Notes under the pieces: generated by a model
What the model was told of the DNA's origin: nothing
What the model saw: only the letters and a program-made list of their open reading frames with translations
Database searches by the model: none
Position numbers and translations under genes: made by a program
DNA from: Candidatus Latescibacterota bacterium
GTDB lineage: Bacteria > Latescibacterota > UBA2968 > GCA-2709665
Length of the DNA stretch: 64,000 bases
Reading direction: 5' to 3'
Assembly (NCBI GenBank): GCA_963667175.2
Contig: CAXXXF010000003.1
Location: forward strand, 480,001 to 544,000
In this document: piece after piece, positions 36,193-58,973 of the stretch
Position numbering within the stretch: the first letter of the stretch is position 1
How the letters are laid out: every line of letters starts with the position of its first letter

Positions 36193-36834
36193 CTATCCAA
36201 GCGGGCTGCCGCCGCCGAAGAGGTCTTCTCCTTCTTCGGCGGTTTCTTCTTTGTTGGAGATGCCCCAGATCAGGCCGTGGGGATCCAGTTCGTTCAAAGG
36301 GGGGCTGTCGTAGTCCGGTTGGAGTTCGCTGCCGCAGATGGGACAGCACGCATAGGAGGGATGATACAGGACGCCGTTGTTGCAGGTCTTGCAGGATTTC
36401 ACCATCGTATCCAGCTTGTCGCCGCATCGCACACAGTGCTGAAAGTAGCCGTCGTAGGGCGTGCTCTCCCCGCACCCGGAACATTTCACCACGTCGTGCA
36501 TGCCCAGTTTGTCGGCCGGCGGCTGCTCGAGCGAGATCGCCTGTCGGTCCGGCACGGAGACGTATTCGGCCTTGAACGTCTGGAATTTTTCGCGGATCTG
36601 GCTGGTCTGCACGCCCAGGTATTTTTCCGATATCGTGATCGTGAAGACCAGATTGGGCGAAATGCCCAGGAAGTGGATGAGGTCACGCGTATTCCAGTCC
36701 CGCTGTTCCACGATGGTGGCCTTGTGGGTTTCGCACAGGCTGAGGAAGTCCTGGATTTTCTTTCGGTTCTCCCGCCGCCGGCTGTTGTCTTCACGTTCAA
36801 ACTCGTACAGGGTGCCGAAGTCGACGCGGATCAT
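36193..36834 (-). CDS. Hypothetical protein with C-terminal double zinc ribbon
   Basis: CSGC, CVRC, CKTC, CPIC. Start overlaps the uvrA stop (ATGA). Confidence 0.7.
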   Translation of the reverse strand: MIRVDFGTLYEFEREDNSRRRENRKKIQDFLSLCETHKATIVEQRDWNTRDLIHFLGISPNLVFTITISEKYLGVQTSQIREKFQTFKAEYVSVPDRQAISLEQPPADKLGMHDVVKCSGCGESTPYDGYFQHCVRCGDKLDTMVKSCKTCNNGVLYHPSYACCPICGSELQPDYDSPPLNELDPHGLIWGISNKEETAEEGEDLFGGGSPLG

Positions 36835-39602
36835 GGTTCGATCACCTCTTTGAGAAAGCGGCCGGTGTGTGAGGCCGGCGCGGCGGAAACGCGTTCCGGG
36901 GGCCCCTCCGCGACGACCCTCCCGCCGGAATCGCCGCCGCCGGGACCGAGATCGACGATCCAGTCCGCCCGTTTCACCACGTCCAGGTTGTGTTCGATCA
37001 CAATGACGGTGTTGCCCTTGTCCACCAGCCGATCCAGAACCGAAACGAGCGTCCGGATGTCCTCGAAGTGCAGCCCGGTCGTCGGCTCGTCCAGAATATA
37101 CATGGTTTTACCTGTTGCCACACGCGAAAGTTCGGCGGCCAGTTTGATGCGTTGCGCTTCGCCTCCGGAGAGGGCCGTCGCCGGCTGCCCCAGCCGGATA
37201 TAACCCAGGCCGACGTCCGCGAGGGTTTCCAGCTTCCTCCGCGCGCCGGGTATATCCCGAAAGAACGTGAGCGCCCTCTCGGTGGTCATCTTCAGGACGT
37301 CCGCGATCGAACAGCCCTTGTAGCGGATTTCCAGGGTCTCCCTGTTGTAACGGCTTCCGCCACAGGCATCGCAGGTCACGTAGACGTCGGGAAGGAAGTC
37401 CATTTCGATCCGTTTGAGGCCGTCGCCCTGACAGGGCTCGCAGCGTCCCCCCTTCCGATTGAAGCTGAATCGACCGGGCGTATATCCCCGGACCCTGGAC
37501 TCGGGCAGTTGCGCGTAGAGATCTCGAATGTCCGTAAAGACGTCGGTGTAGGTGGCCGCATTTGATCGCGGTGTCCGACCGATAGGCGCCTGATCGATCC
37601 GGATGATCTTGTCGATCCGGGAAAGTCCCTCGATGCCGTCGTGCCCAAGCGGTACGGCCGTGGCGTTGTGCAGCCTGTTCGCCAGCGCCGGATAGAGTGT
37701 CCCGTTGATCAGAGTGCTCTTTCCGGACCCGGACACACCGGTAACGCAGACAAGGACGCCCAGCGGCAGCGTGACGTCAACGGACTTGAGATTGTGTCCT
37801 CGGGCGCCCTTCAATACGATCCGGCCGGTGGGTTGTCTGCTGTCGGGGGGCTGGGGGATGGATTTCCGCCCGGAGAGGTAAGCGCCCGTGAGGCATTCGC
37901 GGGCGGCCATAATATCCTCAACGCTACCCTGCGCGATCAGTTCGCCGCCCTGCTCGCCCGCTCCGGGCCCGAGGTCGATCAGATGGTCGGCGGCCATCAT
38001 GGTCTCCCGGTCGTGTTCCACCACCAGAACCGTATTGCCGAGGTCCCGGAGCGTTTCCAGCGTGTCGATGAGCTTGCGGTTGTCCCCGGGGTGCAATCCG
38101 ACACTGGGTTCGTCGAGGACGTAGAGCACTCCCGAAAGGCGCGTGCCGATCTGCGTGGCCATGCGGATCCGCTGCGTTTCGCCGCCAGAGAGGGAGGCCA
38201 CGCTGCGTTCCAGCGTGAGATAACCCACACCCACGTCCCTCAGGAAGACGAGCCTGTTGCGGATTTCATCCAGAATCGTGTCGACGACCTCCCGGGGACC
38301 CAGTCTTCCCTTCAGGCGATCCATGAAATCGATGGCCCGGTCGATGCCCATCGCCGATACCTGCCCGATATTGCTGCCGTCAATGGTGACCGCCAGGGCC
38401 TCCTTTCGCAACCTGGCGCCGGCACAGTCCGAGCAGACAACGGTACGGACGTACGGTTCCGGGGCGGACCCGGCTTCATCGGATGCGGCATCCGCAACCC
38501 GCCGGTTGAGGGACGGGATCACGCCGTCGAAGCCGAGGGATTCGTCGCCCCACAGAATGGCCTCCTTCGCGCTGGTTGGAAGCGAACCGAACGGCGCGGC
38601 GACGTCGAACCCATACCGGTCCGCGAGGCGCCTGAGAAGGTCGAGCTTCGCGCGGCCCCTGGGGACGCCCCAGGGTGCGATTGCGCCCTCGGCTATGGAG
38701 CGCCCCGCGTCCGGAACGACGCAGTCAGGGTCTATTTCCGTCCTCTCGCCCATTCCATTGCAGGCGGGACAGGCGCCGTGCGGGTTGTTGAACGAGAAAA
38801 GACGGGGCGTCAGTTCTTCGAGGGCGGCGTCGCAGTTTCTGCAGATCAACCGGGTGGAAAAGCTCAACTCACGGCCTTCGAGTACATCCAGAAGGACGAT
38901 GCCGCCGGACAGGGCGAGCGCGGTTTCGAGCGAGTCGGCCAGCCGCCGTTCCATTTGCGGGCGGACGACCAGGCGGTCGATGACCGCGTCGACGGTATGC
39001 GGTCTCTTCGGGTCCAGGCGAATCTCCTCTTCCAGCGCCCGATCGCGGCCGTCGATCCGCACGCGCACGAATCCATCGCGCCGCAGGCGTTCCAGTTCCC
39101 GGTCCAGGCGACCTTTCCGGTTTCGTATCCATGGCGCCAGAATTCGGAGGCGGGCGCCCGCCGGCATCTCAAGCACCGTGTCGACGATTTCGCCAACGGT
39201 CTGGCAGGAGATGGGACTCCCGCAATGCGGGCAATGCGGCAGACCGGCCCGCGCGAAGAGGACCCTGAGATGGTCGTGGATTTCCGTGAGGGTGCCAACC
39301 GTCGACCTGGAATTTCCCGCGGCACGACGCTGTTGAATCGCTACGGCGGGGGAGAGGCCGTCGATGCTGTCGACGTCGGGTCTCTCCATCACCTCCAGGA
39401 AACGGCGCGTATGAGCGGACGTCGCCTCCACGTACCTGCGCTGTCCTTCGGCATAGATGGTGTCGAAGGCCAGCGAGGATTTCCCCGAGCCCGACGGCCC
39501 CGTGATGACGACAAACCGGTTCTTGGGGACGTCGAGATCGAGACCCCGCAGGTTGTGCTGGCGGGCGCCGCGTATTCGGATGGCGTCGTTTGCAGGTGGC
39601 AT
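36831..39602 (-). CDS. uvrA: Excinuclease ABC subunit A
   Basis: GARQHNL, GPSGSGKSSLAFDTIYAEGQRRY, second Walker A GVSGSGKS, two LSGGE signatures, Zn fingers. Confidence 0.97.
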   Translation of the reverse strand: MPPANDAIRIRGARQHNLRGLDLDVPKNRFVVITGPSGSGKSSLAFDTIYAEGQRRYVEATSAHTRRFLEVMERPDVDSIDGLSPAVAIQQRRAAGNSRSTVGTLTEIHDHLRVLFARAGLPHCPHCGSPISCQTVGEIVDTVLEMPAGARLRILAPWIRNRKGRLDRELERLRRDGFVRVRIDGRDRALEEEIRLDPKRPHTVDAVIDRLVVRPQMERRLADSLETALALSGGIVLLDVLEGRELSFSTRLICRNCDAALEELTPRLFSFNNPHGACPACNGMGERTEIDPDCVVPDAGRSIAEGAIAPWGVPRGRAKLDLLRRLADRYGFDVAAPFGSLPTSAKEAILWGDESLGFDGVIPSLNRRVADAASDEAGSAPEPYVRTVVCSDCAGARLRKEALAVTIDGSNIGQVSAMGIDRAIDFMDRLKGRLGPREVVDTILDEIRNRLVFLRDVGVGYLTLERSVASLSGGETQRIRMATQIGTRLSGVLYVLDEPSVGLHPGDNRKLIDTLETLRDLGNTVLVVEHDRETMMAADHLIDLGPGAGEQGGELIAQGSVEDIMAARECLTGAYLSGRKSIPQPPDSRQPTGRIVLKGARGHNLKSVDVTLPLGVLVCVTGVSGSGKSTLINGTLYPALANRLHNATAVPLGHDGIEGLSRIDKIIRIDQAPIGRTPRSNAATYTDVFTDIRDLYAQLPESRVRGYTPGRFSFNRKGGRCEPCQGDGLKRIEMDFLPDVYVTCDACGGSRYNRETLEIRYKGCSIADVLKMTTERALTFFRDIPGARRKLETLADVGLGYIRLGQPATALSGGEAQRIKLAAELSRVATGKTMYILDEPTTGLHFEDIRTLVSVLDRLVDKGNTVIVIEHNLDVVKRADWIVDLGPGGGDSGGRVVAEGPPERVSAAPASHTGRFLKEVIEP

Positions 39603-39618
39603 GCGGGATTGGCGAGGC

Positions 39619-39646
39619 AAAACCCCGATCGGGCGACCGGGGTTTT
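39619..39646. terminator. Rho-independent terminator downstream of the tRNA-like gene
   Basis: AAAACCCCG-ATCGGGCGAC-CGGGGTTTT hairpin. Confidence 0.7.
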
Positions 39647-39649
39647 GGA

Positions 39650-39717
39650 TGGCGCGGCAGAGAGGACTCGAACCTCCAACCATCCGGTCCGAAGCCGGAT
39701 GCTTGAACCGCTGCCGC
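39650..39717 (-). tRNA. tRNA-Arg(TCG)-like gene lacking the D-arm (68 nt)
   Basis: GCGGCAG/CTGCCGC acceptor stem, TCCGG-CTTCGGA-CCGGA anticodon arm, GGAGG-TTCGAGT-CCTCT T-arm, G-CCA end. Only 11 nt (CGGTTCAAGCA) where the D-arm should be. Confidence 0.8.
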
Positions 39718-39731
39718 GGAGGCGTTGGATA

Positions 39732-39759
39732 AATATACGCACCGCCGGCGCCGTTGCAA
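39732..39759 (-). promoter_or_regulatory. sigma70-type promoter of the tRNA-like gene
   Basis: Minus strand TTGCAA-16 bp-TATATT, 14 nt upstream of the acceptor stem. Confidence 0.6.
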
Positions 39760-39863
39760 GCCCAAAAATCGCCACTTGACAATGGCGGACGAAATGGGAA
39801 AATTAGGGACTTGCCGCAGCTGAGCTGAAATCCGAAAGCGGCCGTTGTGTCAGGGGGTATGTT

Positions 39864-41153
39864 GTGAACAACCGTTCGGCAGCGTTATTCGAAGCGGCGC
39901 AGCGGGTGATTCCGGGCGGCGTGAACAGCCCGGCGCGTGCTTTCGGCCCCGTAGGCGGCCAGCCGCTGTTCATAACGCGAGGAAGCGGGTCGAAAGTTTT
40001 CGATGCGGACGGGCGGGAGTTTGTCGACTACGTCTGTTCGTGGGGACCGCTGGTTCTGGGCCACGCGCCGCCAGGCGTGGTAGAAGCGCTCAAGCGGACC
40101 TGCGAGCAGGGTACGAGTTTCGGGGCGCCCACTGAGACAGAGGTTGAAATGGCCCGGCTGGTCACCGAACGCGTGCCCGGTGTGGAAATGGTGCGCATGG
40201 TGAACTCGGGTACCGAGGCCACGATGTCAGCCGTGCGTCTGGCCAGGGGGGTTACGGGACGCGAGAAGGTGATCAAGTTCGAGGGCTGCTGGCACGGGCA
40301 CGCCGACAGCTTTCTGATTCAGGCCGGGTCGTCGGCGCTCACCACGGGCGTGCCCAGCAGCCCCGGCGTGACCGCGGGCACGGCGGCTGGCACCCTCACC
40401 GCGCCCTACAACGACCTCGAGGCGGTTGAGCGGATCGTGGCGGAGAACCCGGACGAGATCGCGGCGGTCATCGTGGAGCCGGTGGCAGGCAATATGGGTG
40501 TGATTCCGCCGGCGGACGGATTCCTGGAAGGATTGCGGGAACTCACCGCGGATTCGGAGATTGTGCTCATATTCGACGAAGTAATCACCGGATTCAGGGT
40601 TCATCCGGGCGGCGCCCAGGCGTTATACGGGGTCACGCCCGATCTGACCACGCTCGGCAAAATTATCGGCGGCGGGCTGCCGGTGGGCGCCTTCGGCGGC
40701 AGGCGGGAGATCATGTCGCATATTTCGCCGCTCGGCAAAGGGGTATCGCAGGCCGGGACGCTATCGGGAAATCCCCTCGCGATGACGGCGGGCCGCGAGA
40801 CGCTCAGGCAACTCCGGGAACCCGGCGCGTATGAATCGCTGGAAGCCAAAGCCGCCGCCCTGGAGGCCGGCTTCCGGGAAAACCTGAGGTCGCTCGGATT
40901 GCCGTTTCAACTGAACCGGGTCGGGTCCATGATGACCCTGTTCTTTACGGACCGTCCCGTGACGCGATACGCGGCCGCCGTCGCGTGCGACCAGGAGGTT
41001 TTCGCGCGTTACTTCCGGCTGATGCTGGAACAGGGCGTCTATCTGGCGCCTTCCCAGTTCGAAGCGACCTTTGTCTCGCTGGCGCATACGGACGCGGATA
41101 TCGACCGGACCGTGGAAGCGCAGTACAAAGCCTTGAAATCATGCGCAGTCTGA
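39864..41153 (+). CDS. hemL: Glutamate-1-semialdehyde 2,1-aminomutase
   Basis: [51 protein letters not shown]. Confidence 0.96.
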
Positions 41154-58896: not shown

Positions 58897-58973
58897 TGGT
58901 GGGCCCGGACGGATTCGAACCATCGACCTCTACTTTATCAGAGTAGCGCTCTAACCGACTGAGCTACGGGCCC
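58897..58973 (-). tRNA. tRNA-Ile(GAT)
   Basis: Full cloverleaf GGGCCCG-TAGCTCAGTCGGTTAGAGC..CTACT-CTGATAA-AGTAG..TTCGAAT..CGGGCCC-ACCA. Confidence 0.97.

Follow-up and report, generated by a model that had tools for sequence, protein, structure and literature searches.

The window analysed here is a stretch of 64,000 nucleotides (nt) from a Candidatus Latescibacterota genome (contig CAXXXF010000003.1, positions 480,001 to 544,000). Between its divergent hemL and uvrA genes lies a 68-nt gene on the minus strand (39650..39717) that resembles a transfer RNA (tRNA) for arginine, tRNA-Arg(UCG), with the D-arm deleted. It was identified by ARAGORN, by the Rfam model RF00005 and by alignment with its orthologues, and is called the remnant below. 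The window genome is labelled G000 and its locus L001, and other G and L numbers denote genomes and loci of the comparison set. Upstream of the remnant, the promoter scan placed a sigma-70-type promoter, TTGCAA-16-TATATT (39732..39759, minus strand), which has a variable spacer but keeps both hexamers in all 15 genus genomes; the sequence-only reading had given the remnant its own −35/−10 promoter, and this was borne out. A divergent promoter conserved in the genus, TTGACA-16-GAAAAT with TG (39776..39803, plus strand), faces hemL (39864..41153, plus strand), the gene for glutamate-1-semialdehyde 2,1-aminomutase (NCBIfam TIGR00713, 617 bits). Downstream of the remnant are a G+C-rich hairpin found by folding (39619..39646, minus strand; stem 39642-39623), flanked by an A-run and a run of four T and likewise conserved in the genus, and then uvrA (36831..39602, minus strand), whose translation of 923 amino acids matches NCBIfam NF001503 at 1334 bits.

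Apart from the D-arm, the window copy has the parts of a canonical tRNA. ARAGORN called a 68-nt tRNA-Arg(tcg) at 39650-39717 on the minus strand, and RF00005 scored it at 42.3 bits against a gathering score of 29, the lowest value among the 45 tRNA matches of the 5.5-Mb assembly. Read along the minus strand, the 5′ strand of the acceptor stem (39717-39711) is followed by a linker of 11 nt in place of the D-arm (39700..39710; CGGTTCAAGCA), the anticodon arm (39699-39683, anticodon 39692-39690), a 5-nt variable region (39682-39678), the T arm (39677-39661), the 3′ strand of the acceptor stem (39660-39654), the discriminator G (39653) and an encoded CCA end (39652-39650). The acceptor stem has 7 base pairs (bp), all of them standard; the anticodon stem has 5 bp and a 7-nt loop, CTTCGGA, with U33; and the T stem has 5 bp, including one G-U, and a loop, TTCGAGT, that conforms to TTCRA. 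As a cloverleaf without a D-arm, the copy has standard pairs at 17 of 17 stem positions. A canonical D-arm would comprise a stem of 3-4 bp and a loop with G18 and G19. Here only 11 nt separate the acceptor and anticodon stems, compared with 20 nt in the tRNA-Ile of the window. The best that the Rfam covariance model can fit at this position is a 3-bp stem around a 2-nt loop, and such a stem cannot form. Thus, the window copy has no D-arm, and the anatomy put forward by the sequence-only reading, with its spacing of 11 against 20 nt, was confirmed by ARAGORN, Rfam and the sequence itself.

Comparison with two intact orthologues (L005 and L006) showed what was lost. The linker consists of the remainder of U8, A9, the 5′ strand of the D-stem and the end of its 3′ strand, and approximately 9-11 nt, covering the D-loop and the 3′ D-stem strand with G18, G19 and A20, are gone. 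The slip deletion between CAG repeats that had been suggested for the loss does not correspond to these missing positions. Over the 3′ 50 nt, the window copy differs from the intact gene at five positions. An artefact of assembly or sequencing, the true gene having a normal D-arm, is exceedingly improbable. Two studies each contributed a DNA run whose assembled contigs cover the site (39450-40040 and 39453-40442) and are free of gaps and inserted letters, one of these runs possibly being the source sample, and the truncation is present in the assemblies of 11 other species, several of them single-contig. An assembly error, which the earlier reading had allowed for, is thereby excluded. The runs that contain the window stretch are mostly labelled sponge metagenome.

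The remnant is a lineage-wide feature and the stump of a formerly normal gene. When the 181-nt locus was searched against 40 related genomes, 39 gave matches. The whole locus is kept in all 14 other genomes of the genus at 79-90% identity, and outside the genus the match is restricted to the 3′ two-thirds of the tRNA. By ARAGORN and alignment, the truncation is present at the hemL-tRNA-uvrA locus in 12 of the 15 genus genomes, the window genome included, with linkers of 9-11 nt compared with a D region of 20 nt in the intact form; decay peculiar to one strain, another possibility raised earlier, does not fit this distribution. Two genus genomes (G013 and G011, loci L005 and L006, respectively) have an intact 77-nt tRNA-Arg(UCG) at the same locus. 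In G007 (L015) the tRNA gene is otherwise intact, with its D-loop split by a 166-nt insertion with inverted ends (L015:1326-1491). This insertion belongs to a family of ∼164-nt repeats with at least 38 matches in G007, at least 40 in G013 and 10 in G000 (other copies lie at G000:C3:74393-74554 and G000:C16:52287-52477), and is therefore a miniature inverted-repeat transposable element (MITE). One of the MITE-like copies in G000 directly adjoins a tRNA-Arg(CCT) gene (C16:52194-52268).

Outside the genus, a normal tRNA-Arg(UCG) was found at all four examined loci of other genera in the family and at one locus of the sister family. All five have uvrA beside the tRNA, and three have hemL (L016, L017 and L019); L018 and L020 start <150 nt from the tRNA on the hemL side. 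An intact tRNA beside uvrA, being found across genera, is therefore the ancestral state.

In a tree built from the 5′ 1.5 kb of uvrA, 11 of the truncated genomes form one clade (support 88/85). The twelfth, G002 (L004), is sister to the intact G011 (95/100), and the hemL tree concurs (99/99). Within the main clade, sister species have linker substitutions in common (G014 with G010, and G000 with G012), so the truncation is older than those splits, and it also predates the separation of lineages that now differ at ∼42% of 4-fold sites. The recent pseudo-tRNA that had been offered as one explanation is thus not supported. The D-arm appears, from these alignments and trees, to have been lost in an ancestor shared by most species of a single uncultured genus of Candidatus Latescibacterota that is associated with sponges. 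A metagenome scan with the conserved promoter block returned four loci, of which one was relevant and repeated L010, and so gave no new sequences. In L010 itself (G006), the first 1494 nt of uvrA translate with seven in-frame stops, which points to either an assembly frameshift or a broken uvrA; the same sequence occurs in a metagenome record (L112).

The truncated copies have decayed to very different degrees. The Rfam score is 68.1 bits for both intact genes, compared with 47.3, 46.7, 44.8, 42.3 (the window copy), 38.7, 26.2 and 24.7 bits for truncated copies, the remaining five of which were unreported at E ≤ 1; five of the 12 truncated orthologues pass the RF00005 threshold and seven fail. 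Relative to the intact gene, the 3′ 50 nt have 2-8 changes in the truncated copies, whereas the two intact copies and the MITE-split copy have 0, 0 and 1. The anticodon is altered in two remnants (L003 and L008), UCG being retained in 10 of 12. The T-loop is altered in three (L009, L012 and L014), with T54 or T55 hit in L009 and L012. The acceptor stem contains three non-pairs in L012 and a mismatch at 7:66 in L011 and L013.

Compensation was no more frequent than expected: 90.7% of the 204 stem cells in the alignment were paired (19 unpaired), as against 90.4% after shuffling, and 206 of 500 shuffles reached the observed value. Only two double changes occurred in the stems of the 12 truncated copies. 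RNAalifold, applied to the whole leader of the 12 truncated loci, gave a covariation term of −0.16 and thus no support; its consensus shows the acceptor stem and the hairpin, along with an alternative helix in which the anticodon region pairs with the T arm. Minimum-free-energy folds of single sequences vary between species and settle nothing. Thus, of the proposal that related uvrA-hemL regions would show a conserved D-armless form with covarying stems, the conserved form was found and the covariation was not. The orthologues do not keep the anticodon and compensated stems of a canonical tRNA and, as in a tRNA pseudogene, a disabling D-loop deletion has removed the elbow nucleotides where intact orthologues occupy the same locus. 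On these alignments, the pattern of decay appears to be that of a relaxed gene rather than of a tRNA in service.

Some of the changes recur. U8 has become C in eight of the 12 remnants, dispersed over the tree. The last base of the 5′ strand of the anticodon stem has changed from G to U in L003, L009 and L010, which are not sisters, and this change shifts the hairpin by two positions and gives it a longer stem. These parallel changes, together with the G002 allele considered below, keep the bolder readings of the element alive.

Despite the decay, the arms have changed more slowly than their surroundings. Tree lengths were calculated on one fixed 11-taxon topology under the Jukes–Cantor (JC) model. 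The values were 1.62 for the 4-fold sites of uvrA (195 columns), 2.06 for the promoter spacer plus pre-tRNA leader (31 columns) and 2.16 for the D-linker (11 columns), compared with 0.78 for the anticodon arm (17 columns), 0.76 for the T arm (17 columns), 0.48 for the 5′ acceptor strand (7 columns), 0.61 for the 3′ acceptor strand with discriminator and CCA (11 columns) and 0.73 for everything except the linker (57 columns). The arms thus evolve at ∼0.45 of the 4-fold rate and the linker is neutral; a tRNA pseudogene would be expected to show the neutral rate throughout. Parsimony gave 40 steps in the 57 non-linker columns, where ∼80 were predicted from the 4-fold rate. The two deep subclades are separated by differences at 15% of sites in the 3′ 50 nt, compared with 42% of the 4-fold sites of uvrA. 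CCA is invariant in all 15 genus genomes, as are 33 of the 68 columns across the 12 truncated copies, and in a column profile the remnant is conserved like both promoters and the hairpin, with variable stretches between. The contrast between arms and linker does not come from young age, because linker and arms share one history. Relaxed purifying selection on the acceptor, T and anticodon arms and CCA is thereby supported, in a weak form, by the alignment. The other earlier suggestion, a repurposed RNA under selection, therefore held in part: the rates agree with it, whereas the missing compensatory excess and the seven sub-threshold copies do not.

Decoding does not appear to depend on this gene. 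A complete relative assembled as a single contig (G009) has 45 tRNAs, with the Arg anticodons tct, cct, ccg and acg and, all 45 matches having been checked, no tcg; its own remnant scores a sub-threshold 26.2 bits with Rfam and was missed by ARAGORN. Editing of A34 to inosine lets a tRNA with anticodon ACG read CGA, and a CCG tRNA reads CGG. Both tRNA-Arg(ACG) and tRNA-Arg(CCG) are present in relatives, and G000 encodes TadA (NF008113 at 165 bits, equivalog cut-off 150), in keeping with the earlier remark that CGA can be read by tRNA-Arg(ICG). CGA and CGG are covered by the ACG tRNA with TadA and by the CCG tRNA, and the UCG isoacceptor is therefore redundant: tRNA-Arg(UCG) is dispensable in the genus, and the remnant is not the sole or main reader of its codons, as functional D-armless tRNAs are.

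Neither ARAGORN nor Rfam found tRNA-Arg(ACG) in the 95%-complete assembly of G000, and we considered whether the stump might be needed there for that reason. G009 and G013 both carry tRNA-Arg(ACG), with tRNA-Glu(CTC) 10 kb away, and G000 lacks both. The 30-kb G009 region around the two tRNAs (G009:C1:530000-560000; L107 and L108) has no orthologous match in G000; the region is therefore unassembled, a block of at least 30 kb being missing from the assembly, and the suggestion was rejected. Codon usage was uninformative as a test of lost decoding, since three truncated genomes (0.105-0.131), an intact genome (0.116) and the MITE genome (0.119) do not differ in the CGA share of their Arg codons.

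The remnant is closely linked to uvrA. Its end lies 47 nt from the uvrA ATG on the same strand, a tRNA-like fold joined to a message as in a t-element, and the T-run of the hairpin ends 16 nt from the ATG (39602), a gap that is the same in all 15 genus genomes. The scan of 39300-40000 gave two promoter-like sites (shuffle mean 0.0), of which the one on the minus strand is the tRNA promoter; none was found on that strand between the tRNA promoter and the uvrA ATG, inside the remnant included, and an internal uvrA promoter within the remnant was accordingly dropped as a candidate. The hairpin had been described as a terminator before uvrA. With only four T following its stem (39642-39623), it is a poor one and was not rated terminator-like by the consensus scan; it may be a weak terminator or a 5′ stabiliser between remnant and uvrA. 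Elsewhere the arrangement differs: in genus g5, a strong terminator with a long T-run stands after the tRNA, and uvrA has its own TTGACA promoter and a leader of ∼70 nt. In genus g2 (L018 and L019), a long hairpin with ∼20 nt per arm and an imperfect central part comes after an intact tRNA-Arg(UCG), and uvrA begins within ∼30 nt of it, apparently at a TTG start and with no visible promoter. From this layout, the tRNA-uvrA operon may be older than the genus. An additional candidate, a protein-coding extension of the uvrA frame, which stays open upstream of the ATG (open reading frame 36831..39782), was rejected because orthologues differ by 1- and 2-nt indels within it.

RNA contigs are in line with this. 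In two metatranscriptome runs of one study (X19 and X20), contigs from a ∼93%-identical relative run from uvrA through the hairpin into the remnant, aligning to 39493-39688 and 39425-39688, with ∼17-20 further letters unaligned. The same RNA runs gave no contig over the promoter region (39715-39836), which the DNA runs cover, and they cover hemL from 39872 and 39882. There is thus a hint that the tRNA promoter also drives uvrA, the transcript starting there and continuing into the gene. The sequence-only reading had described the remnant as an intact transcription unit. Its promoter stands, but its separateness does not, since uvrA lacks a promoter of its own and RNA contigs bridge the two; most likely the unit includes uvrA. 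Between the divergent promoters, and overlapping the −35 of hemL, lies an 18-nt inverted repeat (39770-39787), and its surrounding block does not vary between the deep subclades save for one base in G007. From its position and conservation, this repeat could be an operator for a regulator of hemL, of the tRNA-uvrA unit or of both.

The reading that we favour, with a probability of about one half, takes up the anatomy, ancestry, distribution, redundancy and rate pattern reported above and sees in the element a non-decoding tRNA relic retained as a promoter-proximal, tRNA-like leader of uvrA. The sequence of events would be as follows. The family has this tRNA between hemL and uvrA, and in this genus uvrA, which has no promoter of its own, would be read from the tRNA promoter through a weak hairpin. 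The ACG tRNA with TadA would read CGU, CGC and CGA and the CCG tRNA would read CGG, which would make the UCG tRNA superfluous, and because it was redundant a ∼10-nt deletion of the D-loop and half of the D-stem could be fixed. The remnant would no longer decode but would still make up the leading 68 nt of the transcript that carries uvrA. The promoter would be retained because uvrA needs it, and the arms and CCA would be loosely held since it would still matter that the message begins with a tRNA-like fold. Such a fold might serve in processing, with RNase P cutting at the 5′ end and 3′ trimming after CCA releasing or defining the uvrA mRNA, or it might act as a structured 5′ cap that protects the message from decay. 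RNase P relies on the acceptor/T-arm helix and an RCCA end, and this fits the invariant CCA and the acceptor strands as the most conserved parts.

Several results weigh against this proposal. The RNA support consists of assembled contigs of depth 3-5 from one study, in a relative's sequence and with DNA carry-over possible, so that no cleavage site, RNA end or level can be read from them; and contigs that bridge remnant and uvrA suggest that part of the message stays uncut after CCA. The ratio of 0.45 rests on 57 columns and the JC model. The anticodon arm (0.78) is as slow as the T arm (0.76), though free drift would be expected there if only recognition by RNase P mattered, and stem changes are disruptive as often as compensatory, which is odd for an RNA kept for its fold. 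Finally, monophyly of the truncated allele is rejected on both flanking genes by approximately unbiased (AU) tests (p 0.0001 and 0.003), for which the truncated group was chosen after inspection of the tree. The G002 remnant is identical in every letter to the expected early allele of the main clade, having the linker of G001 and, in its anticodon stem, the C-G pair of that clade, and it sits between a promoter spacer, leader and hairpin of the intact-type lineage. A simple relic story fails to explain this; on the sequences, the allele would be either a transferred patch shorter than the tRNA or the product of a deletion and three substitutions that occurred twice.

The same observations bear on the other explanations. 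A plain tRNA pseudogene in free decay, its apparent conservation due to its position between promoter and uvrA or to an overestimated neutral rate, would account for the declining series of Rfam scores, for the disruptive changes in stems, loops and anticodon without covariation, and for the three kinds of lesion in one genus (the deletion of the 11-genome clade, that of G002 and the MITE in G007), as expected of a dispensable gene. It sits badly with the rates, the halved number of parsimony steps, the invariant columns and the CCA kept in every genus genome, and the shared history of linker and arms closes the escape through young age. We consider it possible but doubtful. At the other extreme, the remnant could be a tRNA-Arg(UCG) that works without a D-arm. 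It would be processed, receive arginine from ArgRS and read CGA and CGG on the ribosome, as a weakly selected, redundant isoacceptor that is for this reason decaying in some species. The perfect stems of the window copy, its loop CU-UCG-GA, canonical T-loop and encoded CCA would suit such a tRNA, and two changes in this copy give better pairs than the intact gene has (C-G for U-A in the anticodon stem and A-U for G-U in the T stem). Ten of the 12 remnants keep UCG, CGA is not depleted in truncated genomes, and the arms, anticodon loop included, are constrained and the linker free, as in D-armless mitochondrial tRNAs.

Against a working tRNA stand its dispensability, one complete relative having no UCG tRNA and another genome a MITE-split gene; the altered anticodons, T54/T55 positions and acceptor pairs listed above; the seven copies below the Rfam threshold and the lack of excess covariation; and the rise in substitutions from 0-1 in the intact copies to 2-8 per 50 nt. 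With the deletion goes A20 as well, on which arginine identity chiefly rests in systems of the E. coli type. Moreover, an engineered D-armless tRNA in E. coli needed a PNPase mutation to escape degradation (PMC11551756). On balance we regard a tRNA in service as unlikely and, for the window genome and the four species whose copies pass the Rfam threshold, the stronger claim of a natural D-armless tRNA-Arg used by ArgRS, EF-Tu and the ribosome as quite unlikely; if true, this would make it the first tRNA of non-cloverleaf form at work in a bacterium, with its intact ancestor and its dead descendants found in the same genus. A trans-acting role that is new and has nothing to do with uvrA, for example as a tRNA mimic or decoy aimed at a nuclease or tRNA-binding enzyme or as a non-ribosomal aminoacyl donor, would be in line with constraint on all arms including the anticodon loop, with the parallel changes (U8 to C, G to U in three remnants, and the C-G pair common to G002 and the main clade) and with the allele between foreign flanks in G002. 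Such changes are few, however, and may reflect chance or a short gene-conversion patch; no partner gene or other evidence for such a role was found, and decay in seven of 12 species argues against strong selection. This last reading we hold to be very improbable.

The closest counterpart of the remnant is its own orthologue as preserved intact in G013, in G011 and in neighbouring genera, with the same locus, promoter, acceptor stem, anticodon loop, T arm and CCA; the remnant differs in the missing D-loop and 3′ D-stem strand, in its score (42.3 versus 68.1 bits) and in a far higher substitution rate. The mascRNA at the end of MALAT1 is an analogue in that a tRNA-like fold is joined to another RNA, and the Rfam mascRNA-menRNA model scored the remnant below threshold (18.8 bits versus 42.5). 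D-armless mitochondrial tRNAs, such as mammalian mt-tRNA-Ser(AGY) and nematode mt-tRNA-Ser (reviewed in PMC4013460 and PMC7609411), likewise keep three arms and a short unpaired connector, with the connector evolving freely and the arms constrained. Their codons have no other reader, and they work with synthetases and factors that have co-adapted, whereas the remnant is bacterial, redundant and decaying in most species.

An engineered bacterial case has been reported by Edelmann et al. (2024; PMC11551756). That paper states that all known bacterial tRNAs are cloverleaf, and describes a D-armless 'mini HisT' that is charged and used by the unadapted translation apparatus of E. coli: it is accepted by HisRS, EF-Tu and the ribosome once PNPase is weakened, a pnp mutation being needed for its accumulation. 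Mini HisT resembles the remnant as a bacterial tRNA body without a D-arm, but it is artificial and laboratory-selected and has its histidine identity at the acceptor end. The t-elements of plant mitochondria (Forner et al. 2007; PMC1920247), which together with mascRNA are the nearest analogues of a leader of this kind, are also non-decoding, tRNA-derived folds joined to mRNAs, and the remnant would, like them, be cut by tRNA-processing enzymes to form the end of the mRNA. The remnant differs in lying on a bacterial chromosome and in having an ancestry visible from a dated, extant tRNA orthologue, which is unusual for t-elements. Literature searches that took in bacterial tRNAs lacking a D-arm, tRNA-like leaders, tRNAs of Latescibacteria and tRNA pseudogenes of bacteria gave neither a natural D-armless bacterial tRNA nor a description of this locus. 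The element is thus a tRNA-derived element or pseudo-tRNA, and what is new about it is that it is lineage-wide, constrained and tied to uvrA.

Other tRNA genes of G000 were noted in passing. ARAGORN alone called seven over-long or odd tRNAs, none of which was matched by the Rfam tRNA model: Arg-tct of 91 and 81 nt (G000:C6:528073-528163 and C18:248993-249073), His of 102 nt (C16:36547-36648), Val of 92 nt (C17:32226-32317), two Pro-ggg of 81 nt (C13:52656-52736 and 71681-71761) and Gln-ctg of 77 nt (C15:832564-832640). These are probably false positives. The tRNA-Ile(GAU) of the window (58897-58973) is solitary, Rfam finding no rRNA in the window, and a second copy adjoins tRNA-Ala(UGC) on contig C7, as in the spacer of an rRNA operon. 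A gene for tRNA-Sec (tca) is present at G000:C6:264737-264834, so the organism probably makes selenoproteins.

Within one genus, three states of the same gene can be compared: the intact tRNA, the D-arm-deleted form in 12 species and copies that have decayed further. For annotation this has a direct consequence, since pipelines will annotate the remnant as tRNA-Arg(UCG) for some of the species and overlook it for the rest, which distorts the tRNA inventories of these genomes. Should the remnant still be charged in some species, it would be a natural test bed for the tolerance of bacterial translation to loss of the tRNA elbow. If it is only a leader element, it would be a clear bacterial case of a dispensable tRNA gene kept for the effect of its fold on a neighbouring mRNA, paralleling the t-elements of organelles, and it would explain the expression of uvrA in an uncultured phylum.

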